A stretch of DNA of 46,825 bases. It comes from Rhizaria sp. SCN 62-66. Lineage: Eukaryota. Each line of letters begins with the position of its first letter. Positions within the stretch are counted from its first letter, which is position 1. Of this stretch, positions 488-45,491 are shown piece by piece. The notes below the pieces were generated by a model. It was not told the origin of the DNA. It was given only the letters and a program-made list of their open reading frames with translations, and searched no databases. The stretch covers positions 1 to 46,825 of the forward strand of contig MEDY01000234.1 in NCBI GenBank assembly GCA_001724265.1, in the 5' to 3' direction. A program made the translations under genes and the position numbers.

Positions 488-1673
488 ATGAGCCACCTCA
501 GTCTGGCGAGCATGCTGCTCTTCGTTGCCGTGCATCTCACGACAGCAACAGAGGTCAATAGGATCTCTGCTGCAGTGGCTCCGTCTTTAAGCAAAGCACC
601 GTCTTTGTCTTTCGCCAGTCAAGGGGCCGTGCTTCGCGCTGAGCGGTCTGTTTCAGTAACTCTTCACCCGTCTTCCTTGGACACAAGCAAACGCGCAAGC
701 GCTCTTAGTTCCGTTCGCGACGCTAATGGCGATGGTTAGAAGGACGATGGGAGCGACGACGATGCCAGTGGTGGCGGTGGAGGCATTGACTCGACGCTTT
801 TGGCCGTTGGCATTGTTGTTATCGTCCTGATTGGCGCCATCGGCGCTTTTATTGCCCGTCGGCTATGCACTGTGGGCGACGGCCGTGAGCCTGAGCAACC
901 AGTCTTGGTACGTAAATACTATGCTCGCGTCTAATGTTGAGTTTAATGCCCGCGTAGTATACCCACCCGCTGATAATCGATTACGTCACTTGGGTTGTTG
1001 TTGTTTTTTTCATTTCCTTCTTGCTCGTATTCTATGCGTCCATATCTTGCCATTTGTACTAAAATAGGAGGCGCTGCCCGCGGTCGACGACGAGCCCGCC
1101 TACGACCGTGACGTCGAGCTCGCCATCTCCGGCGCTCGCTCTGCATCCGCATCCGCATCTGCAGCATCTGGCGGCGGCGGTGCTGTGGAGGCCGCGACGC
1201 ACGTCTCACGGTCCAGCTCGTCGTCCTCGCCGTCACCGACACCGCGTGGCATGCGACTCGCGACCGCCACTGTGACTCGCAGCGCTCTCGGCAGCACTAT
1301 CAGCAGCAACAAGAACAGCAGCCGCGGTAGCGGCGGGCATGGTAGCGCGTCGACTGAACCCATATTCGCGTCTTCTCCCGCAGACGCTGACGCTGACGCA
1401 GACTCTGCAGAGGTAGACGACGATGAAGGAGATGAGGAGGAGGGTGATTTGGGCGCGCCGATGCGCCGCGCGCCCGCGCTGTACAACAGCGCACCGCCGC
1501 GGCGCACGCACGCCAACGCCAACGCGCACACTGCACTCGAGGCTGTGGCGCGAATCGAAGCCGAGACCGCGGCCGCAGCGCAGCAAAGTGCAGTGCAGCA
1601 GCGCGCGCAGACGCCGCAGACGCAGACGCAGTTTGCGCGCACGGTCAGTGGAGAGGCGGGGGCTGTGCAGTGA
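488..1673 (+). CDS. Single-pass type I membrane protein (signal peptide, TM helix, low-complexity cytosolic tail); exons 488-907 and 1068-1673; in-frame TAG at 737-739
   Basis: N-terminus MSHLSLASMLLFVAVHLTTA resembles a signal peptide. The frame continues through TAG into KDDGSDDDA...TLLAVGIVVIVLIGAIGAFIARR, a TM helix followed by a basic stop-transfer. A phase-0 intron (908 GTACGT ... AAATAG 1067) joins it to the frame of the 1185..1673 ORF. Ends in TGA. Confidence 0.7.
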
Positions 1674-2144
1674 GCGCAGAACGCAGCCTTAACACGCACA
1701 CTCACGCATATGCTTGTGTGTTGTTGTGAAAGTTTCTGTTTCTGTGCCGTTTGTTCAGGTCAATGCTGCATTGTCTTTCATGTTGGTTTGAATTATCTTT
1801 GCTTTTGTTTCCGCTGCGAATACGCGTGCGCTTTGACTCTGTGTGATTACAATTTGATTGTTGATCTGTCTCAGTCATAGCAACGCAGGCCAGTGTCTTT
1901 CCCGTCAGTAAGTTATCTCGGGGTATACTTAGAAGCCATCAACACTCATACACAACTTGTTGTATTGAAAACAATGGGATTCATAATAGTAAAAGTACAT
2001 TGTGTATTCTTGCACATGGCCCTCGGTTCCATGAACAATTTATGTAAACAAGGAATTGTAGCTTGATCGATATCAGCACAATCCGCCATACATTTAAGCT
2101 GATGTCACACGTTGGTAACATCATATGAAGACAGTGTGTGACAC

Positions 2145-4745: not shown

Positions 4746-7700
4746 ATGTCTGCTCCTTCGCAGACTCTACCAATGGTCCGTCCTCCTTTGCCGGGTATTC
4801 GCTCTCTCACCCTCGCTCTTTTTCCTTCCACAACTTCACTCACCCTTACTATCTTTGCTGCTGTTTCCTCTTCGCCCTTACCCCGCCCTTCGCCGCGCCT
4901 GTTGCCCCGCGCCGCAGACAATCGAGGAGACGGAGGTCTAGATGGTGCAGCTGCTCGACAGCTCCATGACAGACGAGTTCAGCGAGCTCACGCCCGGACA
5001 GCTCCTCAAGTGGATGGACGGCTGCGCGTGCATGTCCGCCGAAAAGTACGCCATCTTCTCTTAACTTTCGCTCACTTAACTCCTCTCATCTGTCTCTGTA
5101 TCCGACGCACACGTGCTTATCCCCCTCTCCTCTCCGACTATTCATATCTTCTCCCTCCCTCCTCCCTCCGCCCATGCCCACCCACCCTGTTCCCGCCGCC
5201 CTTGCGCCCCGCAGGTTTGCGATGCGGTCTTGCGTGACGGCCGCGATGGACGACGTCTCGTTCCTGGCGCTGCCGCGCGTGGGCGAAGTCGTCCAAGTCA
5301 AGGCCCAGGTCAACCGCGCATTCGGTACTTCCATGGAAGTCGGCTGTGTCGCGCTGGTTGAGGACCTCTACTCGGGCCGCGTGCGCCGCCTCTGCTCCGC
5401 CTACTTTACCTTTGTCGCGCTCGATGCCTCAGGCGCCAAGGTTCGTCTCCCGCGCCTCGGCGTGGCCCCGCCCCAGCCCCTGCGCGGCCCCACCGGTACT
5501 CCGCTACTGCAGCCCGGCCAGTCCCCGTCGACGACGTCGCTGCAGAGCGGACAGCTGTCGTCGCGCCCCGCCACGCCACCACCGGCGATCCCGCTCCCCG
5601 CCGCCGCCGCCGCCGCCGCGCGCGCGCTCGGGGACAGCGGCGGCCCCAACGCCACTGTAACATCCGCATCTCCATCCGCATCAGCGTCCGCGGCTGCATC
5701 TGCTGCCACCACGACTGCCGGGCCGGCGCTAGCGACCACGATGGCCTGCCCCGCGCCGCGCGCGCTGCGACTGCCGCTGACAACCGGCGACGCCGCCGCC
5801 GTCGCTGCTGAGGCCGCTGCGTCATCCGCCGCCGATCTATCCACCGCGGACAATGGGGACGTTAGTAGCGGCGCCGGGGCCAGTACGAGCCCGAGCGCGC
5901 CTGACCTGACTCTGGCGGCGCTGCCGCCGCTGCCGCTGACGCTGCCGCTGCCGCTAGATCTCGGCCTAGACGGTCCGGACGGCGGGCTGGACCGCGGTCT
6001 GGACCGCAGCCTGGACCGGGGAAACTATGATGTGGCGGCGGCGCCTGTGGGGCTGGCCGCGGCCCCGCTGTCGCCGTTGCCGCCGCGGCCGCGCACGCCG
6101 CTGCCCCGCGACCGTAAGCCCGACCGCGACATGCGCAACCGTGACCGTGGGCGTGGTGGCAGAGGCAGAGGCAGAGGCGGTGAAAGAGACGGCGGCGCCA
6201 ACGAGACCGAGGCGGAGACCGAGACAGAGGCGGAGACAGAGGCGGAAACTGTGGACACCGACGCGAGCAGCGCACCCGGCGAGCTGATCAGGCACGTCAG
6301 TCTGTCGTCGCTACCAAACTCACCCTCGGCCTCGGTCTCCGTCTTTGCCGCCAGATCGTCTCGCGTCGGCATGCAACAACAACAACAACAACAACAGCAA
6401 CAGCCTCAGCAACAGTCTCAGTCGCAGTCGCTGCAGCCGTTGCAGCAGCTACAGCAGCCGTTACAGCAGTCTCAGTCGCAGTCGCATTCACAGCATTCAC
6501 AGCAGCCGCAGCAGCCGCAGCAGTCTCAGCAGCAGCCGCGCGCGCTGTCGGCGGCTGGCTTTGTGACTGCGAACGTGCTCTCCTCAGCCTCTGCGACATC
6601 TGCGGCCCCCGTGCTTGCCTCCGCCTCCGCGCCCGCCGCAACAAACACAACCACAAACACCACGACAGTCACCCCGACGAACGCGCCAGACGACGCGGCG
6701 ACGACGCTTGTCAAGGCGAAGACAGTGCCGGCAGCAGCGACCGCTCCAGCACTGGCAGCAGCACCGGCGATGGCAGCAGCACCGGCGATGGCAGCAGCAC
6801 CGGCGGTGGCAGTAGTGGCGACGTCGCTGTCGACGTCGCCGACGGCCGCGGCGGCGTCTGCGTCCATGTCCGATCCCGACACGCCTCTCATGACCTCCGC
6901 CTCCGCCGCCAACAAGACCGGTAATTATACAGGCAATGCAGGCACCGGGACCGCGGCTGCCTCCGCGTCGCGGGGCCCCGTGGCGGCGGCCGTGGCGGCG
7001 GCAGCGCTGGCGACGGCGGCGGACCGCGCGATCACGAACCAGCGGCGCTGGGACGAGGCTCTGGAGCGACGGAACCTGCGTCTGCTGCGGCGGCAGATCA
7101 TCGCCGAGACCGAGCACAAACTTAAAGCGTCGCGCGCGATGGAGACCATCCAGGCGCGGTCACTGCGGGCGTACCAGGACGCGCTGCAGGCGCTGGCCGA
7201 GAGCGGCGAGGGCGGCGCCGCGGAGGCCGTGGCCGCGGTCGCCGCCGCGGTCGCCGCGGGGGAGAGAGACGCTGCCGCGGCCCCGGACTCGGCGGTGACC
7301 GCCGGAGAGGAGGAACGCATGCCCAGCCTCAGCAACAGCAGCACCAGCGGCAGCGGCGGCGCAGCGACGGGCGCTGCGACGGCCGCTGGGTCGTCAGCGT
7401 CGGCCAGTGTGGCGGCGGCGGCGAGTGTGTCATCGATGCTGGGGAGCCCCGTCTCCGGCGGCGCGCGGCTGGGCCCCGCTGCGGCGCGCGCGGGGGCGAC
7501 AATGCCCGTGGCGGTGGCGGACGAGAGCGGCGCGGGAGTTGTGCTGACGCATCACACGCCGCGGTTTGCGGGCGACTGCTGCTGCCTCGACACGCAGCTG
7601 GTCCTGCCGGTGCACGCCAACCACATGCAGACGTGTTTCGGCGGGCAGACGATGGCGTGGATCGGTGCCGCGTGCACCATCGCCGCCGTGCGCTTCGCGC

Positions 7701-22237: not shown

Positions 22238-24634
22238 TTAGTGCGCCGCAGAAGGTCCGCGCAGTGCGGCGGAGGCCTCGTGCATCATCGTGGCCATGGC
22301 GGTGCCGCGGCGCGAGCCCAGCACGGCGGCCACCGAAGCCAGGTCGCTGCCAGGCACGCACGACGTGTCGGTCAGCGCGCCCCCAGCGCCACCGCCAGTG
22401 GAACGCTGGCGCCCGAAGCCGCCGCTGCTGCTCTGGCTGGCCTTAAACGCGGCGGCCGCGGCAGCAGAGGGCGTCGAGGAGGGCGTGGAGCTCGCGCCGT
22501 CGCCACCGCCGCCGCTGCTGACGCCGCCGGAGGTCGTGGGCAGTAAGAACGAGACCGAGACTGACGGCCCCCGCTTGTGCGTGCGCGCCGGCACCTGACG
22601 GTCTGCTGCCGACCCGCCATGCTTAAGCGCGTTCGGGCCGTGGGGGCTCTCGCGGCGCGACGCGGCCGTGCTGCCCGTCGCGCCGCCAGCAGCGCGCGCG
22701 CGGCGGCTCTGAGTCAGCGCGCGCTCGCGGGCGCGCTGGCGGCGTGCGGCTTTGCGGGCCTCATCATCGCCGCCCTCCTTGTCGTCATCGTCGTCGTCCT
22801 CACAGTCGTCGTCGTCGCAGTCGTCGTCGCTCGATGGGCTGTTGTAGTCGGAAACGGAGTCGCCGGAGCCGGGCGCGCCTGACTTGCGCTCACGCTCACG
22901 GCCGCCGCGGCCGCGGTGGGGCTGCGATTTCTGCGGCAGCTGCAGCTGCAGTTGCTGCTGAACATCGCTGCTGCGTTTGCGCTGGTGGTGGCCGTGGTGG
23001 GGCTGATGGTGCCAGTGCGCGGTTTGACTCGCGCTGACGCTGCTGTCTGAGCAGTCGCCGCCGCTGAAGGTGTTTGTGTGGTGGAGGTTGCTGGCGTGCC
23101 GGTTCATCTAATCGTCGCCGCTGTCTCCGTCCAGAATCATGTCCACGATATCGCGATCCTTACTGCCGCCACTGCCGCGGCCACCGCCACCGCCGCCGCC
23201 GCTACTTCTGCTGCCGCCGTTGCCGCCGCCGGCCGTGACTGAGCGGCGGCGGCCCGCGGCGGTGCCTGACCGCGCAGTGAGCAGCAGAGTGGACCCAGCC
23301 GTGGCAGGCGTGACGCGGCGCTGCAGCGCGCCCGAGTGCTGCGCCTGCATCTGCGCGTGTGGCGGCTGCAGGTTGAACATGTTCCCGCCGCCGGCGCCGC
23401 CGTTGCTGCTGCTGCCGGCGCGCGAGAGCGTCGGCGCCGTGTTGCGGTTCGCGCGGACCGACGTGAGGCTCTCTTCGAGGCGGCGGACCTGCGAGCCACC
23501 GACGCCCGAGGCCTTGTAGACGTCGAGACTGCGCGCGAGCGACTTGACCAGGTCCGCGCGCTCCGTCGAGTCAATCTCGCAGTAGACGAACAGGTCGCGG
23601 TGCACGCGGGGGAACTGCTGCAGGAACACGTCCTTGGGCACGCGCGGCCCCGCGGGGGTGCGGCGCACGAGCGAGTCGTAGATGTATTTAAACGCGCAGA
23701 ACACGGCCTCGGCGTGGGACGAGCCCGGGAATTTCTTGCAGCGCTGGCGGTAAGCATAGCGCACGATCTCGACGTCGTTGTACGCGCGGCGCTTGTCGCC
23801 AGCGATGCGGTAGACAATGGCGATGAAGCGCGTGTAGCAATCGACGGCAAGTGCCTTGAGGTCCTGAACGCTGAGCGCGGACCCGTCGGGCTCGTGGCAG
23901 TAGTACGTGAACACGTCCTCGAGGTGGATGGGGTACATGAGCAGCAGCGGATCCGTCCAGTTCTCCGGGAAAGCGTCGAGCGCCGCGATTTGGTCAGGCG
24001 TCAGCGGCACGCTCGCGTCCAGGCCTTCGCTGCTGGCGCCCGCGCTCGCCGCGACCGCGTCGGCAGAGGTGGAGGCCGCGGCGGAGGTGCGGCGGACGGG
24101 CGCGGTGAGGCGGCGGCGTTCGAGCGGCTGCGACGGGTTATAACCAGCGTCGAGCGGGAGACCGAGGATGGAGGCCGCGGTGACGCCCTGAGCGACTGAG
24201 GCCGGGCGCGGGGTCATCTTGCCGTAAAGCAACGCCTCCTCAGGCGTGAGCTGGACCTGCGCAAAGGCAAAAGACATGCCCGCGAGCGGGTCGTCGTCGC
24301 TGTCGATGCCGCCCACACCGCCCATGCTGCCGTGGGAGGGCGGGTGCTCGTCCAAAGAGAACATGTTCCCGCCCGCGCCGCCGCTCGAGGCGCCTGCAGA
24401 GGAGCGAGCGCCCGCGCGGGAGCTCGTGACGCCCGTGGCGCCGGAGCCGGGGGCGCGGGTGTAGCGCGCCGAGAGAAGCATGTTGCGGTTGCGCACGGAC
24501 ATGGTGACGGCAGAGTTGGCGTGAGCGCCGCCGCCTGCGTCCGACTCCGTCAGCTGGGTCGAGCCCTGGCGCACCGGGAGGCGCGAGGAAGGGCCCGGCG
24601 ACGTGTCGGCAACTTGGGACGATCCGCAACCCAT
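22238..24634 (-). CDS. Predicted N-myristoylated/palmitoylated protein with a central helical (degenerate EF-hand-like) domain; one ORF if TAG 23110-23108 is read through
   Basis: Starts MGCGSS (Gly2/Cys3/Ser6). Globular-looking segment LEDVFTYYCHEPDGSALSVQDLKALAVDCYTRF...VPKDVFLQQF. The ORFs 23108..24634 and 22238..23107 abut in one frame (GDSGDD*MNRH) with the same composition. Ends in TAA, followed by AT-rich DNA. Confidence 0.7.
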
Positions 24635-25457: not shown

Positions 25458-28400
25458 ATGAGCCTCAGCAGCGCCAGCACCAGGGCGGCCGCCTCGGCTC
25501 GCCCCGGCGCGGCCGCTGCGCGTGCCCCGGGCGCCCATGACGACGACGACGACGCCGAGTTTGCGCTGGACGACTTTGACTTTGACGTGGGGCCGCTGCT
25601 CTCCCCGCAGCCTGTCTCCAAGACAGGCAAGAAGTCCTTCGTACTCCCCAGCGACACGTCCCCGTCATCGGACAACAGCCCTGGCGTTGCTGCTGCTCCT
25701 GCTCCTGCTCCTGCTGCTGCTGCTACGGGCGAGTTGTCGCCGCTGTCCCGCGCCGGACACGACCCCTTTGACCTGGGCGCGCTCGACGACGACTTCAACG
25801 CCCCCGCCAAGCCCCCAACATTCTCCCCCACCAACACCACCACTGCATCATATGTCTCTGCGTCATCGCCCTCGACTAGAGCCGCACCGGCCTCCCCATC
25901 GCCCTCGGCACTGTCGCTGTCGCTGGGGTTGTCCGCGTCGGCCGTCGCCGAGGCCCGCGCGCGCCGCGCCGCGCTGTACGAGCGCCTGGCTCCTGCGTCC
26001 CAGCTGACGCAGAGGCTGCACGCCGCTGAGCTCATGGACCTCGACTTCCTCGCCGTCGTCGCGGAGCAAGACGAGCGCGCGCGTAGACACCACGCCGCGC
26101 TCATTGCGCACTCTGACGCCAAGATCGCCGCCGGAGACGTCACGCCCCCCGCAACGCCCCCCGCAACTCCTCCGCCGACGATGCCGCCTGACGACAACGG
26201 CGACGCAGATGCAGATGACGCAAAGCAGCACCACGCTGGGGAAACCACAGCGGGGAGCGCGCCGGAACACGTGACCCGCGCGCCCCCCCGCGCGTACCAC
26301 GCGGTGACCGTGAGCAGCCTGCTCAACGCGGAGCTGCCGCGCGCCAACACGGGCGCCGGCCGCGCCCGCGCCACCGCGCTCGCCGCCTGCGCCCGCTCTG
26401 CTGCCAGCGCTGCGGCCGACGGGAGCGCTCCCACGAGCGCGAGCGCGACTAGTCCGAGCTCTGCCACCGGCGCCGCCGCCGCCGCTAGCGGCGCTAGAGG
26501 TGCTGGAGGTGCGGGAGCTGACCCTGAGACGGTCGCGCGGGTGGCCGTGGCTGCCACGGCGGCGGCGGCGGCGGTGCGGAAGAAGAGCGCACTTGTCGTG
26601 ACCCGCGAAAACGTCGACAACGACATCTGGACACAGGCACTCTCCCGCCGCCTTAATAACGGCGCCAATGACGCCAATCCCGTCAACCCCGTCACAAGTG
26701 CGACTTCTGCTGCTGCTGCCGACTCAGCGACTGCGGGGGCCCCGCTCCCGCGGCCGCTGGCGTGCCCCGACCTGAAGCCCTTGCTGCCTCTCGCCCTGCG
26801 CTCCCCGCCGCCGCCGCCCGAGACCGCAGGCGCCCCCGCGACGCTGACGCTGAGCTCCGAAGTGCGCTTCCGGTTCAAGCGAGTGGCGCACGGGCGACGC
26901 GTGCGCTGGGCCGACGCGCCTCCGCCCGAGCAGCTGACGATGACCGACGAGGACTGGCAGCCCGCGCTGCGGCGCGCGCGCGAGAGGGCCGAAAAAAACG
27001 CCAAGCGCGCGGAGAAGGCGGCTGCCAAGGAGCAGCGCAAGGCAGCGAAGAAGCTCGCCAAAATCATCGGCACTGTCGGCGGCGTTGTCGGCAAATCTGT
27101 TGGCGATGCCGCGTCTGCTACTGCCACTGCTGCTGCTGTTGCTGCTGCTGCTAGCGCTGCTGAGGCCGCAGAAGGCGATGCTGCTGCGACCGAATCTAAG
27201 GTTGCTGTGGCAGAGACCAGCGCAGAGACTGAGACAGAGACCAAGGCTGATGCCAAGGCGGCGACTCAGGCGGCGACTGCTGCTGTGTCTGCGCCCCTGC
27301 CGGCGCTTGCGTCACCAGTCTCAGCGCCGGTTGTCGCGATCGTGCCCGCCGCCGTCGCCGCCGCTGCCGCGCCCTCTGTCACAGCCACTGCCACTGCCAC
27401 TGCCGCTGCCGCTGCGAGCGCCGCTGCTAGCGCGAGTGCGGATGCGGGTGCGACTAGACCTGCCATGCGCGGTATCGTCCTCCCCGCGCCCCTGAGCACT
27501 GCCACAGCAACGGCGTCGTCCTTGTCGTCCGCCGCGCTCAGAGCCGAGACTGGCCGTGAGGCGTCGGTCCGCGCGGCGCTCGAGAGCGCGCTGGCGGCCG
27601 GGGCGGCCGGGGACAGCTTCGGCCCGCACCGGGACGCCGCGGCGCGCAGAGAGGCCGTGTGCAGAGAGGCCGCCCTCAGAGAAGCCACCCTCAGAGAGGC
27701 AGCGCGGCTCCGCGTCACCGAGCAGCAGCGGCAGCAGATGCGGGAGGCCGGGCGCAGGGCCACCTCGGTCGCGGACCTGCAGCGGCGCGCGGAGGCCGGC
27801 GAAGACGACGAGGACGAGGATGAGGACGGAGATGGAGGGTTCAGACTGCACTTTGCCGGCAACGGCGCGAACAGCAGCAGCGACGACGATAACGGCGACG
27901 GCAATGATATGAAGCGCCCCGTTGCCAGCAAGCAGTCCGCCGCTCTGAACCCCCCCACGAAGCCTCTTGCGGCCGCGTCTGCCACCGCTGCGGCTGCAGC
28001 TGTAGCGCCTCAAACCCCGACGAAGCCCGCCGCTGCCACTGCCACCGCTGCTGCTGTCGCCGCCGCGGCAGCCGCGCCCCGGTCGACCGCCGCCCCGCCA
28101 CAGCTCTCGCTGATGTTCCCCGGCGCCGCCGCCGCTGCCGCCGCCGTGGCCGCTGCCTCCGGCCTCCCCCCACCGCGCGACGACGCGCTCTCCCCGCGCC
28201 GCACCGCCCCCGCTGCCCCCGCAGCCGCCGCTGCGGCTGTGGCGGCGGTGTCGTCGCTCGCGGGCGGAGCTCCGGCTGCGCGCGGGGGCGGGCAATGGCG
28301 CGCGCAGGGGGCCGCGCTGGAGCAGACGTTTGAGCAGCTCTCGCTCGAGATCGCAGCCAGCAAGCCCACCGCCGCCGATAACTGCAACAACAACAGCAAC

Positions 28401-31400
28401 AAGCCCGCCGCTGCCACAGCGACTGCTGTCACGGCCACTACGATGGCTGTGGCGCGCGCTGCCGTTGTCGCTGCGGCGAAGGTGCGGACCACCAACGCCG
28501 TGACGCTGACGCAGATGCAAGACGCGTGGCTCGCGCAGCCCAACAGCCAAGAGCCAGACACCGCGGACGACAGCGACGACGACGACGACGGGGTGACGCG
28601 TGTGCGCATCGTCGTCAGCGACAGTGATGACGACTGCGACGACGACGCGCGCGCCCCCGCGCCTGCGTCCGTCTCCGCTGCCTCTGTAGCTGCCACCTCG
28701 GGGACCGCGCCTGCGATGCCAGCTGCAGTGCCGACGACGACTGTGTCCGGGTTCGCAGTGGCCGGCTCCATCACACCGTCACAGACTCACGCTCCCACTC
28801 AGACGCAGACGCAGACACAGACTCAGCCCCGTATGCTAACGCGCGATACTGCCACAGCCACCCCTACCACAGCTGTCTCGACTGCTGCTGCGACGCGTCG
28901 CTCGCCGCCGCAGCCGCAGGCGCAGTCGCAATCTCGCAGCGCGCCCTCTGCCGCAGCCGCAGCAGCAGCGACTGCAGCCGCTGCGGCGTCAAAGCGCCTC
29001 AGTGGCGGCGGTGGCGGCGGGCTGCCCGGTCGCCCGCAATCCCCGGTGGGGCGCGCGCGCTCCCCGGTGCCGCGGCCTCAGTCGCCCTCCGCCGGCCGCC
29101 GCCTTGCCACCAGTGGCCCACCTGCCACTGCGGCGTCGGCTGCGGCCGTGCGTGGCCGCGTCGCCAGTCCCGGTCGCAGCGGCGCTGGCGGCGGCGGCGG
29201 CGGTGTCAGCGCATGTGGCGGCGGTGTGCGTGTGGGCAGTCCGTCCCGGTTCGCCAGTCCGGCGCGGCAGCGCAGTGCGCGTGCGTCGCGCGTTGCCACC
29301 ATCCACATGGGTTCCGATGACGATGACGACGACGACGACGATGCTGATGATGTCAATGACGGCGGCAATGTTGATGGCAACGGTCAAGAGCAGCCCGTGG
29401 CTGCCGCGGGTCGTGGCGCGAAGACCGGCGCTGGTCCCGGTCCGCGCCCGTCGAGCCCGCGCCCGCTGAGCCCGCGCACCCGCAACTCGGCGTCGGTCAC
29501 CGTGCCCGCTCTGGCGCGCACCGGCAGCAACCGTGCCACGGCCGCAGCCGCAGCCGCAGCCGCTGCTCCTGTCGCCGCTGTCACTGCTTCCGCGCCCGTG
29601 TCTGAGCCCGTGCCCGCGTCGGCCGAAGCTGCAACTGTGAATGTGGCTGCGACGACTGCGACGGCTGCGACGGCTGCGGCCGTTGCGACGGTGTCCACAG
29701 CGAGTGCGGCCGCGGTTCCTGCGGCAGCGCCTCTGGCCTCCCGCGCGGCCGCGACTGTGCGTGACGCCGTGCCCGGCGAGTCCGACAACACTCTCGCCAC
29801 AGCCAGCGAGTCGGGTGTGCAGTCGCAGTCTGTGCTTGACTCGGCGACGCATTCGGGCGCGACTGTGGAGGTCGACACAACGCCGCAGCGCCGAAACGCT
29901 GCTGTTGCTGCTGCTGCTGCTGTCGCGCGCCCCGCCACTGCCACCGCGACGGGCGCCGCCCCCATGTCCCCCCACCAACAGCGCCCGCAGCAGCGGCCGG
30001 CAGCCGCCGTGCCTGCTGCGGGCACTGTGGGCAAGACGACAACACCCGCCCGCTCCTCCACGCAGCGCCTCGCGCGGCCCTCCTCCGCCGCAGCCACAGC
30101 GGCAGCGACAGCTTCGGCCAACGCCACCGCGTTCACAGCGGCGACGGCTGGCGCATCCCCATCCCCGACCGCTGCCACCGCAGGTCCCGCAGGCTCCCCT
30201 AGCGCGCGCAGCCCCACCGGTGCAACGGGCGGCGGCGGCGGCGGCGGTGGTGGGACAACCGTGGACACGCTGAGCGGGACATCTGCGGTGCACCAGGAGT
30301 TCCTCCGCCGGCTCCGCGCGCGCAAGGCCGAGGAGCGCGAACGAGCCCTCGCGCGCGCTGCGGCGGCCGCGGCGGCGGCGGTTGGTGGCGCCGCCACGGA
30401 CGCCAACGCTATGAGTGTGCATCACGTTGGCGGTGATGCGTCGTCGTCGTTTGCGACTATGACAACTGCGACGCCCGTTGCAGCGCACACGACCGCTACT
30501 CTCAGCTCGCCCTCGCACGCACACGCGCATGCGGCGAACAGCAGTATGGCTGCGACGGCGAATGCTGCGAGCGCGATGCCGCTGACGCGCACGCCCGCCG
30601 CGGCCGCCGCCGTCGTGGCCGCGACCGCTGCTGCCGTCGTCCGCGCCGCCGCCGCCGTCGCCGTCGCCGTTAAGGGCCTCGCGCGCGCGGACGCGCTGGT
30701 GCGCGGCGACGCCCGGTTCGAGCCGCTGCGGCTGGCGCGCGCAGCGCAGCTGGCGCAGGACCAGAACCAGCTCGCGCACGCGCAGGCGCAGGCCGCGCAG
30801 GCGCAGGCGCACCTCGCGCAGCTGCAGGCGCAGGCTAGTCTGGTGCAACGCAAGGCCACCGCTGCCGCGACAGCCGCAGCGATGACTGCGGCGGCGGCTA
30901 CAGCGGCGGCGCAGGCGCAGGTGGCTGCGGATCCCAGTCAGCTGCACGGTCAAATGCAGGCGCAACTGCGCTTGGGACGGGCCACACAGGCTGGCGGCGG
31001 CGGGGCCCCCGTGAGCCCACGCGCTGGCAGCGCCAGCGGCAGCTCCAGCGCGAGCTCCAGCGCCAGCAGTAGCGCGAACACGAGCCCCAGCGCCAGCTTC
31101 GGGGGGCCTGGCTCTGAAGCCGACGTCTCGCGCACTGCTGCAACAACAACCACATCCGCCCGCGGCGCCCCCAGTCCCGGGGGTCTCGGTGGCCACGGTG
31201 CGGCGGCGACGGCGGCGGCGCAGCGCAGTGGATCTTTCGGTCCCAAGGGCTGGACGCCGCCAGTCGGCAAAGACGCCGCCGCCGCGCGCGGCGAGCGGAC
31301 CCCCACTGTGACTGCGCGCATGCAGCAGTCTAACCCGGGGGCCGCGAGCCAGAGCCAGAGCCAGAGCCGGGGTGCGGCGGCACGTGACCGCAGCAACAAC

Positions 31401-32623
31401 TCTACAACTGCGACCCCCCTGCGCACCCGCACTCCCACTCGCACCGCCACTGCCACTGCCCCTGCGGCTGCGGCTGCGGCCGTGGCCACCCCGTCTGCTG
31501 TGCAGTCAAGTGCAAACGCTGCGCTCACGAGCCACGCAGGCCGCACGCCGATGCGCCGCCCCGCCACCGCCACCGCAGCCGCCGCAGCTGCCGCTGCCGC
31601 GGCTTCCACAACATCGGTCACGTTTCTTTCGACTGCGACTGCCGCGGCCAGTGCGACCCCCGGGCACTCGCGGCGGCCCTCAGCAGGCGGCGCGGGCTCC
31701 GGGGCCGCCGCCGTCGCCCCCGCCGCTGCGGGCGTCTCTAGCACCCGCAGTCTCGCCCATGGTAACGCGTATACCCACGGTTACGGTCGTGCTGCGGTGG
31801 AGACGCGGCTTAACTTCTCGCCCGACTCCGAGGCCGAGACTGCCGAGACCGCTGAGACTGCCGAAACCGCCGCCGCGCACCGCGCCCGCAGCAGACGCGA
31901 GGAGCAGACCCCCCGTGTCGTCACGGTCACCGCGGCACCGGTAACGCCCAACGCTGCGGTGCGATCGCCAGTGCCAGCGCCAGGAACACCGGGAACGCCG
32001 TCGTCGTCGTCGTCGCGAGATGTGATCGAGTCGCCGCACTCTGCGCTGCGCGGTGCCGCGTGCCCCGCCACGCCCTCGCGTCTCTTCTTCACTCACGCCG
32101 CCCCCAGCAACAACCATGGCGACCATCACGACAACGTCGCTGGTAAAGCGCCGGTCGCGGATGATGCTGATGCCGTGCATGAGCCGCACGCTGCGCACAG
32201 TGGTTATGCGTCTGCGCACAGTGGCGCCGCGCAGTCGTCCGTGAAGAACCCCTCTGCGGCCGCCAGTGACAGAGAGAAACCCCACGCCGGCGCTGTTGAC
32301 GCGCACTGCGCGCTGGCCGCTGTGTCCGGCTCTCTTGTCAGCGGTTTACGCGGTGGGAGCGCTGTCGCCGGTCACAGTGCGTGCGTGTCGGTCGGCGGCG
32401 GCTCACTCGCGGGCTCCTGCGCCGCCCCGCCGTCGCCGCTGCACGTGTCGGTGGACTCTATGCTGCCGGAGGGCGAGGCGCGAATCACTGCGCTCGCGCA
32501 GCGCATGGCGGCGCGGGAAGCGGCGCGCAAGCGCGGCGCGGTGCCGGCGCCCGCCACGGCCACGTCGGCGAATGAGCGCGCCGTCGCGCAGGCGCGCACT
32601 CTCGCGCTCGCGCTCGCACAACA

Positions 32624-32654
<31 letters not shown>

Positions 32655-34610
32655 GCCAAGCAAAAGCAGCTGCAACAGCAACAGCAACAACAGCAGCAAA
32701 AGCAGCAACAACAAGAGATGAAGCAACAGCAGGATAGTGCTGCGGCGACCGCGACTCCTGCGAAGCGTACTGCGACAACGCCATAGCAGCAACGCCCTCA
32801 GTCAGCCGTTGTCGCAACCGCTAACGCCACTGCGACTGGGACCGCTACATTGATTGCGAATGTGACGAGCGCTGCAGCTTCGCCGCAGGCCAAGTAGTCG
32901 CTTGGCCTCCCGTTGTCAATGGCAGAAAACGCGAACCTTGTGGCTGTGCCGTCTCCCGCCCCAGTGTCCGTGACGGTGAACGTTCACGACGACGATGACG
33001 ACGACAATGACGACGATTATGATGAACACGGTGACAACGACGACGCCAAGCCCTCGGCTGCCACTGCCGCCGCCGCTGTCACCGCCGCAGCTTCGAATGC
33101 GGCGCTTGTCTCAACCCCCGGCAAGCCCCCGCGGCCTCAGCCCTCCGCCTCCGCCGCGGCTGCCACTGCTGCTGCTGCTGCAACGGCGACGACGACGACG
33201 ACTACGACTGCGGCTTCACTGGTGCCCCCGCCGGCGCGCGCGTCGCTGATGCCGCGGCAGTCCCCCGTCTTTATCCCCGCGGCGTCGCCGTTCTTGCCCT
33301 CGACGCCCACCGCCGCCGCCTCCGCAGCAGCTGCCTCTGCCGCAGCCGCCGCGGCCGCAGGCGGGGACTCGGCGCCCCACACGCCTCTGACAGGCGCGAT
33401 GGCGGGCGCGTCGCCGGGACACATGGCGCTGGATCACAGCGGAACACACGGTCCTCACGGTACACGTGGGACCCATGGGGGCGCAGGTGACGCGAGGGCG
33501 CAGCAGGCGCGCGCGCGGTTGTTGTCGGCCACTGCGGCCGCGACCGCCGCCGCCGTCGCCGCTGCCGCCGCCACCTGGAACGCCACCACATTGTCGCCCG
33601 CGAACGGCGGTGTCGGTGGCTCTGGCGCTTCAAACGTGAGCTCAGTAGCCCCAGGCTCGCCCGCCGCGGCGGCCTCTGCGGCCGCCGCGGCGGCCGCGGC
33701 GCTGCTGGCCCCGCCGCCGCCGCCGACGCCGACGCGCGCGCTCGTCGTCAGCACGCCCAAGGGCGTCGTCGCCGGCGGCGGAACCACGACGTCCTTCACG
33801 TTTGCGTACATCCCGCGCCGCAACCTCGCGCCGCCGCTCTCCATCAACGGCAGCAGCGGTGGCGGTGGCAGTAGCGGAGCTAAGCGGTCTCCGCGCCTCA
33901 AGCCGCAGCAAGCCAACGGCGCAGGCACGAGTACCGCCGCGGGTGGCACGGGCACTGGTGCCGCCGCGGGTTCCTCGGGTTCCGGTACACGTGGTGGCGG
34001 GGGGCAGACGCGCGCTGCAGGGGACCGTTCCCCGCGCGCGTCGCCGCGTGGGTCGCCTCGTGGGTCCCCGCGGGGCTCGCCCCGTGACAGATCAAGCAGT
34101 AGCGCGCATAGCAACAACAACAACAACAGCAGCAACAACAGCAACATGAGGCCGTCGCCGTCGATGCTGTGTGGACACGCACAGCACGCGCCGGGGCCGC
34201 TGTCCCTGGGCGACGGCTCCGCGGCCTCAACCCCACGGTCCACGCCCACCGCCACGGGCAACGGCAGCGGCTACAGCTACGGCTATAGCGGTGGCTCTGA
34301 GAGCGACTCCTCAGCCGGCGGCGGCGGCATGGGCGGCGGCGGCGGCGGCGGCGGCGGGGGTGGCGGGGCGGCTGTGGTGTTGGCGGACCCCGTGGCCACG
34401 CTGCCGCCCGCGCTGGCCGCGAGTCTGGCATCCGCGCGCTGGGCGGGCAACGTGCCCGTGGCCATGACCGCGGGCGCGCGCGCGCGGGCCACGGGCACCG
34501 CGGTTACCGGCGGGTCCCCCACGGCCTCGCCCTGGGCCGGCGCAAACGCGGGCAACGACGATAGCGCGAGCGAGCACGAGACGGGGGGGGAGTTCTCGCT
34601 CGGCGACTGA
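25458..34610 (+). CDS. Giant (~3050 codon) intrinsically disordered Ala/Ser/Thr/Pro-rich protein with short coiled-coil blocks; in-frame TAGs at 32784-32786 and 32895-32897
   Basis: ORFs 25380..32786 and 32913..34610 share a frame. The gap reads TTP*QQRPQSAVVATANATATGTATLIANVTSAAASPQAK*SLGLPLSMAEN with coding-like composition. First ATG is at 25458. Ends in TGA, where GC drops. Confidence 0.7.
32619..32731 (+). repeat. CAG/CAA polyglutamine tracts
   Basis: Read directly. Similar tracts lie at about 6374-6535 and 15303-15337. Confidence 0.85.
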
Positions 34611-37499: not shown

Positions 37500-37505
37500 G
37501 AGTCC

Positions 37506-37530
37506 ACTTGACTTGACTTGACTTGACTTA
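37506..37530 (+). repeat. (ACTTG)4+ pentanucleotide microsatellite just after the bromodomain gene stop
   Basis: ACTTGACTTGACTTGACTTGACTTA read directly. Confidence 0.9.
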
Positions 37531-38459: not shown

Positions 38460-39632
38460 ATGGGCCATTATCATTTGGGCCTGTAGGGCACACTCGGCCT
38501 GCTCTACATCTGCTTCTCTTTCCTCGTCATCTGCGCTCTCATCGTTCCTCTGACGCCGCAAACGAAGCGCAGTATCGGACCTCCAATTACTGAGATTGCC
38601 CGCATTCTGGCATACGCGACCATTGTTCCTTTCCTCATCACTCTGAGTGGTAAGTTTCGCTCTCGTCTCCATTCCGCTTCGCTCACGCGCTATGTTCCTC
38701 CACTCTGCTCTCACACTACACGCTCTAATATCTATTTGCTTCCCGCGTAGCTGTGTACTCGATGGATAGTGCGGCCAAGGACTACGACCTGCACCGCCTT
38801 ACATCGCACATGTTCGACAAAATCGCATACCGGGTACGCTTAAAAGTAAATCTCAGTGACTATCTCTTCATATCTTCCCTCTTGTCTAGTCACTTCGCGC
38901 GTGTCGTACCCAGTCTATGCAGTCCCCCAGTTTGGTCTCAGTGTAGCGCTCAGTAACGCCAACCCAGGTCTACGCGTCCAGCATCTATGCAGCCTCTTGG
39001 TAATGTCTCAGTGCTGCGTTTGCGGCGAAGTTTGCTTCGTCCTGGTTGTCTCAGTCGCTGTGCTTTGTAACCATGTAACGACCGTCAGCCTGAGCAGCTT
39101 TGCAGTGTGACTGACATCATGACAGTCTCGAGTGACGGCATCCGTGGAACACGCTAGATGCACAGACGTCTGAAGGTTTTTACCGCTGCATACTTTTACA
39201 CATGTCCCACACCAGATCTCATACTGTACTATACGCTCCTGCAAGTAGATATTACTATGCCCTTAAACTCGCTTAGACATCTTGCTCTGTCCTCACTCGT
39301 GTTCACCTTACTCCTACTGATCTCCTGGAACGCGTGCACATATTAATCACACAACAACACAACAGGAGTTGCGCGCGCAGCGTGACGCGCTCGTGGGCGT
39401 GTTCGGCCTCATGCTGGCCCCCGTCCTCTTCACCCTCCGTGCGCAGTTCATCGGAGGCAGCCTTTTCCCCGACGAGGACGCCGCCACGCCCGCCGCGCGC
39501 GCCGCAGCGGTCGCCGCGGCAAACAGGGGCGCAGCCGGTGGCAGCAACGGCGCGAGCAGCAGCAGCAGCAGCAGCAACGGGCAGCCGATTGTCGGCGGCA
39601 AGAGGATGTCTGTCCCGCAAAGCGCAAAGTAA
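38460..39632 (+). CDS. BAP31/BAP29 (Yet)-like 3-TM ER membrane protein; exons 38460-38649, 38751-38833, 39366-39632; probable in-frame TAG at 38484-38486
   Basis: Spliced product MGHYHLGL*GTLGLLYICFSFLVICALIVPL...ILAYATIVPFLITLSAVYSM...FDKIAYR|ELRAQRDALVGVFGLMLAPVLFTLR mirrors BAP31 (MSLQW...LLLCIPF ... KLFRAQRNLYIAGFSLLL). Introns GTAAGT..TAG and GTACGC..CAG keep the frame. Ends in TAA. Most of the gene is missed by the ORF track. Confidence 0.7.
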
Positions 39633-39905
39633 ATGCGCTTCTATTTCAAAAAGAAATTTTCAATCAATGAATCACATGCACTTTAATACATAGCCAACCC
39701 TGTTATTTGTCTTATAATGACTTAACTGTGCAATAAACCTTAAAATGATTTTTGGCCAAAGCGAGGCTCGAATTGGCGCCCCTGTCAAGTTGAATTTCGA
39801 AACTGACACAGTGATCTAACGAGACCGTCATTGGCGTTGCTAACTTAACTCTGGAAGAAAACTCACATGAATGACCTTGTATTTTTAATTATGTCCTCTC
39901 CACAG

Positions 39906-42900
39906 ATGGACTTTTAGCGCTACGTCTCAGCGCGCCAGCGCCTGGAGGAGTTCATCCACGCGCTCAACGTGGTCGAGGCGGCGCAGTCCGCCGCGGGCCC
40001 CCAGCAGCCCCACCTGGCTGACGAGGACTCTGACGCGCTGTGGCACCTGCAGGCGAGCGACAGCTCCGGCGGCTACGGCCCCAGCGGCGCGGTGCCGCTG
40101 CTGTCGGCCGAGGAGCACGACGAGGCGCTGCGGCAGCGGATTCGGGCGATGATCCGCGATGGCGCGCTCACTGTCACGTTCCAGCACGAGCCGCTGCCGC
40201 TGTCGGAGCAGCTGCACCGCGAGCGCACGTACCTCGCGCGCACCATCTTCAACGCAGTAGGCGAGCCGCAGGTGCCGCGGTACCCGGGCGAGGAAGGGCT
40301 CTTCGTGCCCCCGCGGACCGAGATGCCCGACTGGGACATGTACAAGCTCTACTCGCGTCTCTCCCGCGAGGACCCGCGGCGCACGTTCTTCTTTGACGAG
40401 AACGGGCACATGATCCACGCCCCCGAGCAGCGCGGCGACCCCCTCTCCCGCGTGTTCGAGCTGCGGGACCCGTTCCTCCCCCCGGACCCGCGTCTCGCGG
40501 TCGTGGTCAACGCGCCCCAGCAGCGCGCGCAATCACGGCAATGGCTGCCGCTGGTGCTCAACGTCGCGCGCGTGCGCGTCGAGGACCACCCGCTGTTCAC
40601 GCTGGAGGACCGGCTCTGCGTCGCACTGCGGCGCGAGGTAGAGCGGTGGCACCGCCGCCGAGCTGTCGACGTCACGCAGCACTACACATCGCGCATCGCG
40701 GCGCTGCGGGCACGGGTCGAGGGGCAGGTGCAGCGCCTACAAGCCATCCTCGCCCGCCTCGCCGCCCCGCGCCCGCCCTCCGAAAATCACAACAACAGCC
40801 ATAACAGCGGCGGGGGGGACTCTGGGGAAGGGGAGACGTTGCAGGCGCTTAAGGCCGTTTGCGCGAGCGCTGTGCAGGAGGTGCTTTCGGGGCTGGCGCG
40901 GCTCAAGGAGGCGCGTGTGGCGCGCGACGAGGAGTGGGCGGCTGAGCAGCGGCACTTCGCGGATATCTACGCGGCGTGGCAGCGCGTCAAGGCGTTTCGC
41001 GAGCAAACAGGCGCTGTCTATGCCAGCATGGGCTACAACCTCGCCACCACCCTCACCAACAACACGATGAACACGAATACACCGACACCGACGGGAGAGG
41101 GTGGGAGCATCGTGAGCCCGCGCGAGGGCGTCGCCTCGGCCTCTGCCGCGGCCCAAGGCGCCGCGCCGGCCGCCTATGTCGGTTTCCCTCTGTCGCTCAA
41201 AGTCCGCCGTACGGCCACGGACCACGCGGCCGAGCTTGCCGCGTGGCGCAACGACGAGCTGGCCGAGCTGGACGAGGCCCGCCGCGCGCGCGAGCTGCTC
41301 AACGTGCTCGAAGACCTCGAAGAAGAAGCCAATAACAGCAGCGCCGACGCTCAGTACGGCGGTAAGAAGCCGAGTTTGGAGCAGTTAATGTTTTCCGACG
41401 GCGGTGCGGCGCTGCAGGCGCAGCTGGCGGGGCTGGACGAGGACCAGCGCGCGCGGCAGCTTGCCGTCTGGGAGGCTGAAGTCCGCCGCGAACGGTTCGC
41501 CGCCAGGGAGAAGCAGCGGCGGCGGGCGTTTGACGCGACTGGCGAGTTCGAGCGCGTCCGCGCGCGCATGTTGGCCTCGCGCCGGCCGCCCGGACGCCCG
41601 CTGCTGGAGCCGCTGCTGGATCTGAGCACGCCCGTGACGCCCGAGGCCTCGTGCCCGCCCGCCGAGGTCAAGCGGCGGCAGCGGATCGGGTCCACGCTGC
41701 TGTACGTGACGCTCCACGTCAACGGCCGCCCCGTGGCCGCGGGCGACAAGGCTCCCCTCCGCTTCCCGCAGTGGACGGCCGACGTCAACTTCGCGGCGCG
41801 GCTCCAACTCACGGCGGCGCCGCGGTCCGTGGTGTTTGCTCTGCGCCAGGACGCGCTGTTCACGGACCCCGTGCTGGCCGAGTTCTTCCTGCCCGTGCCC
41901 GACCTCGCAGCGCAGCCGCACCTGCGCGAGGTCACCGCCGCCGGCCGCCGCTTTACCGCGCCGCTGCCCGCGCCCGACGCGCCCGCTGACCGCTTCCACG
42001 AGGTGTCAGCCGTGTGCTCGGCGTTCTGGAACGTCCCGGCGCACGTGCTGAAGGATCCTGACGTCCTGCGCGCGTTTGCTGCGACCAACGACGTCTCGCT
42101 CCCGGCGCCGACCTCGCACCGACGCGGCGGCGGCGCGGCGGCGGCGGCGCACCAAAGGGACCTGGCGAGCATCGACCCGAACGACCCGCGCAACGCGCTG
42201 CTGGCCGATCTCGCCCGCCGCGGGGATCCCCTGCGCGCCGCGGCCGTCGCCACCGCCGCGGACTCCAATGGCGGGAGCAGCGGCGGCGGCTTCTCGGGAT
42301 GGGAAGTGTGTCCTGACTTACTGCTTGTCAACGAGGAGTACTACGTGCCGTCGGCGCGCAAGCGGCTGCTGCGCGCGCGGCGCGACGCATTGTTTCTCCG
42401 CGAGCCCGTGCCTCTGCGCGAGGACCAGTTCTCCGAGGAAGCCTTGGCCACACTGGCGCGCTTGGCCGAGACCGAGACCGGCGACGGCGACGGCGACGGC
42501 TCCGTCGGGGCGCACGGCCGCGGCGAGCCCGGCTTCTCGGCCGTCACGGCCATGGCCAAGCGCGTGCAGGATCTCACGGGCCCCGGCTTAACTTACGACG
42601 GAACCGGTGAGTCAGGGGTTCCCGGCGGTCCCGTGCCCGCGTCCGTGGCGGACAACGCGGCGCGCATGCCCTCAGCGGCGGCACTGGCGGCGCTGCGACA
42701 GTCTCTCGCCGGCGACGCCGCCACCGGGCCCGTCGACCTGCACGCGCTGGAGCGGCCTCTGGTGCTGCCGTCGGCGGACGCGGCGGCCGCAGAGGCGCAC
42801 CGCCGCCGCGAGGAGCGCTACTACGGCGTCGCGCTGCCCAACAGCAGTGGCAATAGCGGCAACAATATCGGCGCTGCGGTGACCGTGGGCGGCGGTCGCG

Positions 42901-45491
42901 CTGCAGAGAACGGCGCGCTTGTGCTGGCCGGTAGTGCGGCGTCGGGGACGGCGATGGGACTGGTTGATGGGCGCACGGGCGACCGTGACCTCGCGACTGC
43001 CCTGGGGCTAGTCGGCGCGCGCAACGAGCTTGCCGTGACCGACGTGAGCGACGTCGTGTACGAGCAAGTGAACCCTGACCTGGTGATGACGTCCACGTTC
43101 ATGCGCGACCTGTTCCGCCCCGTGCGGCCGCTATTTGTGTACCGCGACGACGTGCGCGCGGTGACGAACCCGCGGTCGTGTGCGCTCGTCTGCCAAGTGC
43201 TCCGCGCCAGCAACGTCCCACTGCGGACGTCCGCATCCGCGTCCTCGTCCTCCTCGGGGCCGGCGCTGGTGCCGGGACAGACGCGTGAGGCCCGTGAGGG
43301 CGCACGCGCGGCCGCGCTCAACTGCGTCGTACAGGTGTCGTTCCAGGAGAGCGTGCGCAAGACGAGCCCGGCCGCGGGGCCACACCCGCGGTGGCAGGAA
43401 GTGCTGCATTTGCCGTTCACGACGCCGAACGACAGCTACGACGCCGCGTCGCTCCTGCAGCTGCAGTCGCCCGTGCTCGTTGCGCTCTATGACCAGGTGA
43501 CCGTGAGCAACGAGGTCATCGATGCGCGGTTCCAGCGCACTCAGCTCGCCAGCGTCGATTTGCGCTATCTGGGCAGTGTTGAGATCCCGTTCAGCACCAT
43601 CTTCGCCGCGTCCACCATCGAGGGCGCCTTCGAGGTCCGGTTTTTTGCAATTAACAAAGAACAAGCTCTTCTTTTTATTCATGCTAAGTGTTAATTTTTT
43701 CACTCACATTTATATCTTCTCGTATTTTCTCGCTTTGTTGTTTCATCGTTTTCTCAGGTCGAGGTGCCGCTGTTGCACCTGGGCTACCAGACGCCAAACC
43801 CGGCAGTGCCGACGGTCGTCCACCTGTACCTGACTCTGGACCCGCTGCTGATGCCGCCGCGCTCCGACCCCTACGCGGCTCTGCTGGCGGCACCCGCCGC
43901 GGCGACCACGTCGACGGACTCGTCCGCGTCGGCGGGTCTGGTGGACACGCTTCCGACCGCGGCGACTGCTGGCGGCGGGCTGAACCCGGCGTTCCGCAGG
44001 GTAATCGAGTGGGCTCAGCGCGCGTCGGCCGCGGCTGGGCGCGAGGTGCGGCCACTGGTTGGCGACATCAACGGCGAGCCACAACTCGTGACGCGCTTCC
44101 TCACCGCGCAGGCCCCACCCGCGGCGTGCCAGGGCCACCCGCGCGTGTTTGCTCGGTTCGTCTCGCTCGTGCCGTTCGTCGAGGACTACCGTCTGCCGCT
44201 GGGCGGGGACGCGCCCGCCGCCGCGCTGCCCGACGTCTGGTGCACCTCTGCGCAGTTCCTCCGGCTCTCGGGCGGCGACTGGGAATAGCACGCGGTGTTG
44301 CTGTGCAACTACTTCTACTGGTGGGAGGCGCAGACGCGCGAGGCGGACCGGCTGCAGGGTATTGTGTGGGAGACGTTCCTCGCCGTCGGCACCGCTGTGC
44401 CTGAGGGAGACACGTGCTACTGCCTCCGCATCAAGAAAGTCGTACGTCCTCAATCTATCTGTTTCTCCGATAATTTCATTCACTTTTTTCTTTTTAACGC
44501 TCGACACTTACATGCGCGTTTCTGATCTCATTTTTGATAGCATGCTTTTTTATGTTGCTTTTATTTTTGTTTGTTTTTGTTTTTAGAATGGCGCTGTCAA
44601 GGAGCAGACGCTGTACAACGCCGTGACGCACCGCGCCTACGCCACCTCATACGACTCGGCTCTCTTGCCGCTGAAGGAGATCTCGATGCTGGCGTGCCGC
44701 GACAACGTCTACGCGAACCTGCAGGAGTCAGCCGCGCCGGTGGACATGAGCTTCGACGTGACTGACGCGCGCGCGTGGGCTCCGCTCTTCACAGCCAAGT
44801 TCGACGTCTTCGCGTACAACCGGCTCTACGGCGCCGCGTACACGACCCTGCAGACGGACTTGCGGCTGTCGTACGAGCCGGACCCGCGGCCCGCGGCGGT
44901 GCTGCTGGCGGCCGCGGCGGCGCGCTGGGGCGAGTTCGGCCGCCGGCTCGAGCGCATCCTGCAACGTGCGTTCGAATCCTGGCGTGTGCTGCCCACCGAG
45001 TGGAACTACGGCGCCGCGAAGTTAGGCCGCGAAGTGCTGGCGCAGCTCGAGGCCGTTGAGGTTGGTGAGGCAGACGATCTGCGGGACCGTGGGCCTGTGG
45101 CGAAGCTCAAGGCCGCGTTTGCATCGGCGCACGGGTTTCCGCTGCATTTCTCCTGCGCTGCAGACGACGAGGTATGTCGTGTGATTAATGTAATCATCAA
45201 CGATCGACGTATTTCAACGTATTTCTGATATGAATTATTTGCTTTGTTTATTGTATCTCACTGTAACTTCACTTTTGTTCACTGTTTTGTTTGTTTTGCA
45301 CGGTTTAGACTCTATTGGAGCCGTCGACGAAGAATCCCATCGTGCGCAGGCTGCGGACAACCCTGCTGCATCTGAACGAGGAGCCCAACACGGCCTTTGT
45401 TGTTGCCGTACACACACAGCCCTACACGAGCAAGTTCGCCTCTGTCTGGGTGTTTGTTGCCGCGCTCTCCTCCGCGCCCATTGACGCCTAA
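39906..45491 (+). CDS. CC2D2A: CC2D2A/MKS6 ciliary transition-zone protein (coiled coil, C2 domains, C-terminal CEP76-like transglutaminase-like domain); exons 39906-43634, 43758-44441, 44587-45171, 45309-45491; in-frame TAGs at 39915-39917 and 44286-44288
   Basis: Motifs EDHPLFTLEDRL, IDPNDPRNA, C2 (VLRASNVPLR...VQVSFQ...GPHPRWQEVLHLPF), ARFVSLVPF...DVWCTSAQFL...GDWE*HAVLLCNYF, PEGDTCYCL, DNVYANLQ, GFPLHF and C-terminal FVVAVHTQPYTSKFASVWVFVAAL match CC2D2A. Three frame-preserving GT-AG introns. Ends in TAA. The 5' end may include an upstream exon (CACAG acceptor-like site at 39901-39905). Confidence 0.92.

Follow-up and report, generated by a model that had tools for sequence, protein, structure and literature searches.

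In the 46,825-nt (46.8-kb) contig MEDY01000234.1, referred to here as the window, UAG is probably a rare sense codon, most probably specifying glutamate, with UAA and UGA still terminating translation. This reading comes from a comparison of TAG triplets that stand in frame within protein-coding genes with the corresponding codons of a relative, from a protein family profile, and from the codons at which the genes of the window end. An earlier note on this DNA, made from the letters alone, had proposed that UAG is sense and that UAA and UGA remain stops. Judged by sequence comparison, that interpretation is supported and can probably be sharpened to UAG=Glu: homology places four TAGs in three genes, TAA and TGA are absent from the same coding sequence, no gene was seen to end in TAG, and the TAGs recur in contigs of another study. 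The window belongs to the nuclear genome of a eukaryote that has a flagellar or ciliary stage, because it carries GT..AG introns and a gene content, as recognised by Pfam, that includes a CC2D2A-like ciliary gene. The relative, seen here in the proteins P0004 and P0006 and the contigs L001, L002, and L004, has a protein identity of 55-78% to the window.

Two of the TAGs lie in the CC2D2A-like gene (plus strand; exons 39906-43634, 43758-44441, 44587-45171, and 45309-45491). Its structure was derived from Pfam matches, the collinear gene of the relative and GT..AG junctions, and it is collinear with P0004, L001, L002, and L004 over ~1,640 residues. An N-terminal C2 domain (PF15625, CC2D2AN-C2; 59.2 bits) is followed by a C-terminal CEP76 peptidase-like domain (PF24656), which matches exons 2 and 3 with profile positions 1-52 and 64-121 covered; on this combination the gene qualifies as a CC2D2A. 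A PDB search with exon 2 found no relative, and a search of the ESM Atlas returned generic C2-domain clusters only, all <0.9.

The first of the two (39915..39917) is codon 4 of the gene, and the relative has GAG (Glu) at this position. The alignment of the window (ATGGACTTTTAGCGCTAC) with the relative (ATGGACTTTGAGCGGTAC) is ungapped and sets MDF*RY against MDFERY. Nucleotide similarity to the relative begins at the ATG three codons before the TAG, where ATGGACTTT is conserved at 9/9 positions, and the 60 nt upstream of it are unrelated. Protein similarity then runs for ~85 residues until the next Met. Since the similarity starts at this ATG and so many residues match before another Met is reached, the TAG was assigned to codon 4.

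The second (44286..44288) lies in exon 2, inside the CEP76 peptidase-like domain, and faces GAA (Glu) in the relative. Here too the alignment is ungapped (window GDWE*HAVLLCNYFYWWEAQ, relative GDWEEHAVLLCNYFYWWEAQ), and the PF24656 match spans the site. Downstream of the TAGs the identity to the relative is 77-78% (exons 2 and 3), as high as it is upstream.

Where TAA and TGA codons break the alignment of this gene to the relative, they lie in its introns (43635-43757, 44442-44586, and 45172-45308). All three introns are missing from L002, and L004 keeps the first (97 nt) and lacks the other two; L002 and L004 therefore look transcript-derived and, as such, would be direct splice evidence for the exon boundaries. 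The protein model P0004 translates through two of the introns. The terminator of the gene, a TAA at 45489, coincides with the relative's end (...TPAIDA, then TGA TGA TAA). It may be noted that the relative closes this gene with three consecutive in-frame stops (L002 2099-2107, L004 1903-1911), the window with a single TAA.

The third TAG (38484..38486) is codon 9 of a plus-strand gene at 38460..39632, which we take to be BAP31-like, there being no Pfam match. Its first exon spans 38460-38649 and its last exon ends with a TAA at 39630. The relative's counterpart is a 150-aa open reading frame (ORF) on L001, upstream of CC2D2A, which gives two tblastn segments in the window (E=4e-17 and 6e-14); the BAP31-like and CC2D2A-like genes are thus syntenic in L001. 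Across the TAG the window reads MGHYHLGL*GTLGLLY against MGRNHLNLETTLGLVY in the relative, ungapped (tblastn, E=4e-17), and the codon opposite the TAG is GAG (Glu). The first exon contains no Met after the TAG.

The fourth TAG is on the minus strand (23108..23110; CTA on the plus strand). The ORF has 798 residues, the TAG being residue 509, and starts with MGCGSS (24617-24634), a motif that resembles N-myristoylation and palmitoylation signals. The gene (22238..24634, minus strand) ends with TAA at 22238-22240. Its conserved core, which matches no Pfam family, shows 55% identity to P0006 across 302 residues. Downstream of the TAG, conserved blocks match the C-terminus of P0006 (RRQRARERAL/RRQRARQRAL and HKRGPSVS/HRRGPSVS). 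The local score of the two segments was 97, compared with 57.5 +/- 8.5 for shuffled sequences, of which 0/2000 reached 97, and with 39-52 when four other low-complexity ORFs of the window were put through the same comparison. BLAST with composition adjustment missed this similarity; it was the shuffle test that found it. The fraction of G+C (GC) is 0.67-0.75 after the TAG and 0.46-0.47 beyond the TAA. This TAG lies within an insertion specific to the window, and therefore no inference on the residue was made from it.

By homology, then, four of the eight TAGs (38484, 39915, 44286, and 23110) are in frame within the coding sequence of three genes; two more are likely to be so and two may be. 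The likely pair lies in a large low-complexity ORF of 3092 codons (25458..34610, plus strand, ending with TGA at 34608). For the first (32784..32786) and the second (32895..32897), 37 codons on, the evidence is confined to continuity of frame, coding score, and GC. From 32787 to 34607 the gene frame is free of TAA and TGA, of which the two alternative frames contain 9 and 10. Coding log-odds in the gene frame around the two sites were positive (0.30 between the TAGs, 0.51 after them, and also 0.24), and the GC fraction around and after them is 0.62-0.75 (0.62-0.66 for the site at 32784), dropping to 0.45 after the TGA at 34608. Both TAGs are thus probably coding. Possibly a second gene in the same frame begins here within ~135 nt, an arrangement unlike the other gene boundaries of the window. 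No homologues were found for 32898-34607, and a phmmer search with 31500-34607 (TAG read as E) gave 0 matches among 1.84 billion representatives. The ORF encodes ~3,000 residues rich in Ala, Thr, Ser, and Gln, and contigs of an RNA library (X5) lie on it at four places.

The remaining two sites carry no weight for the claim about the code. One (737..739, plus strand) is in a candidate ORF for a 148-residue membrane protein (488-934), in which the TAG is preceded by a hydrophobic N-terminus resembling a signal peptide and followed by 20 hydrophobic residues, LLAVGIVVIVLIGAIGAFIA. It has no Pfam family and its coding log-odds are near zero (0.06 and 0.02). The other (4939..4941, plus strand) immediately precedes the ATG of the first hotdog domain in a gene for an acyl-CoA thioesterase (ACOT) with a START domain, and may belong to the 5' untranslated region (UTR) or to the coding sequence. 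The ORF has no in-frame ATG upstream of this TAG; a 60-nt first exon with a GT donor can be drawn there, the intron ending in a pyrimidine tract and CAG. Aligned with human ACOT12 (3b7k, 4mob), the translation matches from two residues ahead of the TAG, and V stands opposite it. All eight in-frame TAGs of the earlier note were thus present at their coordinates, and the coding claim stood by homology for four and by continuity for 32784 and 32895; at 737 it is no more than possible and at 4939 ambiguous.

The presence of the TAGs in the DNA was followed in contigs of four runs, compared over 24900-44899, a stretch outside which sites 737, 4939, and 23110 fall. Contigs of X4, which come from a different study and a slightly different strain, retained TAG, and not CAG or GAG, at 38484, 39915, and 44286. 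Across 37428-41159 (3.7 kb) X4 differs from the window by 4 single-nucleotide polymorphisms (SNPs), so that the strains are ~0.1% apart. Contigs of X2 and X3 match the window identically over 32895 (32813-33785), 38484, 39915, and 44286; the two are apparently a single data set that originates in, or close to, the possible source study. In addition, a Joint Genome Institute (JGI) contig, L003, is 100% identical over 37354-42369, which spans 38484 and 39915. None of the contig pieces listed for these runs over 24900-44899 spans 32784. The TAGs covered by contigs of the other study and by L003 are present there and so are not assembly errors; together with X2 and X3, such error is excluded for 32895, 38484, 39915, and 44286. 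In the same comparison, a 3-nt deletion variant at 30792, within one of the large ORF's repeats, appeared in contigs of all four runs; the choice is between a length polymorphism and matches from repeats of other organisms.

We then consider where genes end. The ~2,125 codons checked by homology contain three TAGs and 0 TAA or TGA in frame, as had been claimed, the interrupting TAA and TGA codons of CC2D2A being intronic. When the window was scanned for stops that follow coding signal and precede AT-rich sequence, terminator-like TAA codons were found at 9254, 20754, 39630, 11590(-), 13309(-), and 22240(-), and terminator-like TGA codons at 1671, 34608, 37497, 2396(-), and perhaps 655(-). With the TAA of CC2D2A at 45489 the totals are 7 TAA, 4-5 TGA, and 0 TAG (n=11-12, a small sample, in which an occasional TAG terminator could have been missed). 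The previous count had been 8 TAA, 5 TGA, and no TAG; the absence of TAG held and the other two figures were close. TAG candidates in the scan were only antisense to known genes or were the in-frame sites themselves. Past six of the gene ends in TAA or TGA, the GC fraction falls at once to 0.37-0.47 and TAA or TGA appears in every frame; past the TAGs at 32784, 32895, and 23110 it is 0.62-0.75, with a positive coding score in the same frame and no TAA or TGA. A window-wide codon log-odds screen for stops amid coding signal was also tried and did not discriminate, as it flagged antisense frames and the true TAA of the Bud32 gene. TAA is the commonest terminator despite a coding GC content at third codon positions (GC3) of ~0.75-0.88.

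To which amino acid UAG would correspond was judged in two ways. At the three TAGs that can be aligned, the relative's codons are GAG, GAG, and GAA, that is, Glu in 3/3, and Glu makes up ~6% of the checked codons (122/2,125). Independently of this close relative, exon 2 of CC2D2A was scored against PF24656 with different residues placed at TAG 44286. The highest scores were for E (37.9 bits) and D (37.8), followed by Q (35.4), S (35.4), and K (35.2); X (34.5), A (34.3), Y (33.7), L (32.6), and W (32.1) were lower. Since all three alignable sites face Glu and the profile favours E or D, UAG is probably Glu. The TAGs at 737 and 23110 sit in acidic runs (DGxKDDGSDDD and DSGDDx). UAG=Gln finds 0/3 of the alignable sites facing Gln, and Q scores 2.5 bits under E in PF24656. 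A code in which UAR (UAA and UAG) means Glu is contradicted by the absence of in-frame TAA from the checked coding sequence and by the place of TAA as the commonest terminator. From ORF lengths we estimate ~6-7 TAGs in ~11,000 codons of the window, so that TAG would account for ~2-3% of Glu codons.

The same observations bear on other explanations. Under the standard code UAG would still be a stop, and the genes would be expressed through leaky or programmed read-through by near-cognate or low-level suppressor tRNAs, with a reduced yield of protein. The rarity of TAG in the checked codons, and its absence from three large ORFs (see below), would fit. Against this, one TAG is codon 4 of its gene, another is codon 9 of a second gene, and one stands within a conserved domain, positions at which incomplete read-through would lower the output of the entire protein. 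Two of the TAGs are in a single gene, and no terminator-like TAG site was seen. The base after the TAG (A, A, A, C, T, G, C, and C across the eight sites) reveals no common context. Moreover, the residues that near-cognate read-through ordinarily places at UAG are Gln, Tyr, or Lys, and the facing residues are all Glu. We consider read-through unlikely.

UAG could also be sense for an amino acid other than Glu, such as the Gln, Leu, or Ser of published UAG-only codes. The three alignable sites come from a single relative, the PF24656 differences are small (the 2.5 bits between E and Q at 44286), and the ambiguous site at 4939 faces V in the ACOT12 alignment. Set against these are the agreement of 3/3 sites on a residue of ~6% frequency, the profile, in which E and D rank highest and L and W lowest, and the acidic surroundings of 737 and 23110. 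A meaning other than Glu is, on this evidence, very unlikely.

A further explanation keeps the standard code and regards the TAGs as true nonsense alleles in decaying or dispensable genes, common to closely related strains. GAG to TAG is a single transversion, GC-biased codons mutate more readily to TAG than to the other stops, and strains only ~0.1% apart may well share an allele. At least three genes within 22 kb would be affected, however, with no frameshift and no TAA or TGA. Identity to the relative is undiminished downstream of the TAGs, 2/2 strain SNPs in the coding sequence (exon 1 of CC2D2A) are synonymous, and no TAG terminator was seen. Gene decay as the source of the TAGs is accordingly highly improbable.

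There is next to no likelihood that the TAGs are artefacts of sequencing or assembly, or are spliced or edited out of the mRNA: introns often end in ...TTTAG, and 39915, which reads TTTTAG, resembles a splice acceptor, but the same TAGs occur in contigs of a different study and in the separate JGI contig, the alignments across them are ungapped so that removal of an intron would delete conserved residues, and ATGGACTTT before 39915 agrees with the relative's start at 9/9 positions, the sequence upstream being unconserved. To our knowledge there is no activity for U-to-G editing.

Several points weigh against UAG being a sense codon for Glu. The evidence base is one 47-kb window and one relative. 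The assignment to Glu has n=3; GAG makes up ~26% of the single-step precursors of TAG, so that 3/3 Glu would arise by chance in ~2% of cases. GC-biased codon usage would by itself favour nonsense codons of the TAG type only. Because random nonsense would favour TAG, and about a quarter of it would derive from GAG, neither the TAG-only pattern nor the set of three Glu matches is more than modest evidence. Zero TAG among 11-12 terminators is no more than mildly unlikely under the standard code, with a probability of ~0.01-0.07 for an assumed TAG share of stops of 20-35%. Three large ORFs (4970-9256, 14847-20756, and 35445-37499; together 4,081 codons) contain no TAG, and among the listed pieces of the RNA-library contigs (X5) none crosses a TAG. 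Rfam found neither tRNA nor any other RNA in the window. ARAGORN proposed a single, unusual candidate ('tRNA-???', 95 nt, anticodon of two bases) at 26288-26382 (minus strand), within the large ORF; as Rfam sees no tRNA there, it is probably spurious. Finally, the relative has 0 in-frame TAG in ~2,100 aligned codons, so that the code may not be shared by the whole clade. The change may therefore be young, or the usage of TAG may be lower in the relative.

If UAG is indeed read as Glu, a tRNA-Glu with a CUA anticodon, one base from CUC, would read it, and eRF1, whose gene lies outside the window, would have lost recognition of UAG with that of UAA and UGA kept. TAG codons would arise by mutation of GAG to TAG and then be tolerated. 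The low usage of TAG suggests a reassignment that is young or constrained.

Among the NCBI translation tables, 15 is the Iotanema type (UAG=Gln), 30 is the peritrich code, and 31 that of Blastocrithidia. A ciliate macronucleus is unlike the genome seen here, which is GC-rich (GC3 0.75-0.88), assembled in long contigs, and furnished with spliceosomal introns. Changes of the nuclear code are rare, and in the accounts available UAG has been decoupled from UAA in a handful of cases, giving Gln, Leu, or Ser. As described in PMC5304391 and PMC11687900, UAG means Gln with UAA kept as a stop in Iotanema spirale, Protocruzia tuzeti, Hartmannula sinica, and Trochilia petrani, Leu in the rhizarian exLh and three TARA phyllopharyngean ciliates, and Ser in Scotinosphaera; the precedents listed in the earlier note agree with these accounts. 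Going by those descriptions, the window resembles the UAG-only codes in that UAG is sense while UAA terminates, and differs in the residue, Glu and not Gln, Leu, or Ser, and in the very low usage of TAG.

Glutamate itself has been reported for UAG elsewhere. In the ciliate Oligohymenophorea sp. PL0344, according to the account in PMC10553269, UAG=Glu, UAA=Lys, and UGA is the sole stop. The window shares with PL0344, so described, the meaning of UAG and its decoupling from UAA, but in the window UAA terminates (7 terminator-like TAA and 0 in frame) and ciliate features are lacking. Peritrich ciliates and Blastocrithidia read UAR as Glu, Blastocrithidia in addition reading UGA as Trp and using UAA also as a stop (PMC12153298, PMC11687900, in the descriptions given there). 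Again UAG=Glu is common to these codes and the window, whereas in-frame UAA and UGA are absent from the window. Reports of cognate tRNAs for UAR exist for Blastocrithidia, whose genomes are GC-poor, and the account of PMC12153298 links the change to their AU-richness; because the genome of the window is GC-rich, that driver is inapplicable here. As far as these three accounts go (PMC10553269, PMC12153298, PMC11687900), UAG=Glu occurs only alongside a reassigned UAA, which is Lys in PL0344 and Glu in peritrichs and Blastocrithidia. A full-text literature search, supplementary files excluded, found no code with UAG=Glu and both UAA and UGA as stops.

The balance leans, on these grounds, towards an undescribed nuclear code, UAG=Glu with UAA and UGA as stops, in a GC-rich, non-ciliate, flagellated wastewater eukaryote and without AT-pressure; it may be a reassignment at an early stage. 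If so, a new code table would be required, and eRF1 would once again be shown able to tell UAG from UAA. The change would have occurred in a GC-rich genome, where A/T mutational pressure cannot explain its origin. A young reassignment would also represent the stage at which the ambiguous intermediate, codon capture, and tRNA loss models can be told apart.

As regards the source of the DNA, the public runs that contain the window sequence are bioreactor, wastewater, and activated-sludge metagenomes. By way of speculation, the ACOT and START architecture described below might point to an amorphean flagellate. A single metagenome scan gave L001-L004 as its only matches, and a query of genome contigs with P0003 gave no further contigs. 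The database protein models P0003 and P0005 begin after a TAG or end at one; proteins of this organism are thus split or truncated at TAG by gene callers.

The window carries genes on both strands, interrupted by GT..AG introns, and the description of its source as intron-bearing, GC-rich, and containing CC2D2A (here by PF15625 and PF24656) proved correct. Long ORFs are 65-75% GC, compared with 37-50% for the spacers, and GC3 from codon counts is 0.75-0.88 in coding sequence. The composition has two states, exons at 62-75% GC and UTRs and introns at 37-47%, the fall starting right at the stop codon. Besides the genes described above, Pfam recognised three minus-strand genes between 10.4 and 14.5 kb, one with a cold-shock domain, one with Sel1 repeats, and one for a Bud32-like kinase, as well as a bromodomain protein at 35445-37499. 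At 14847-20756 there is an MFS transporter ORF of 1,969 codons, in which long low-complexity insertions separate the halves of the transporter fold. The plus-strand gene at 4942-9256 is, by Pfam, a fusion of an acyl-CoA thioesterase with two hotdog (4HBT) domains to a START domain. This is the architecture of vertebrate ACOT11/12; protists do not usually have it, and it may offer a clue to the lineage.

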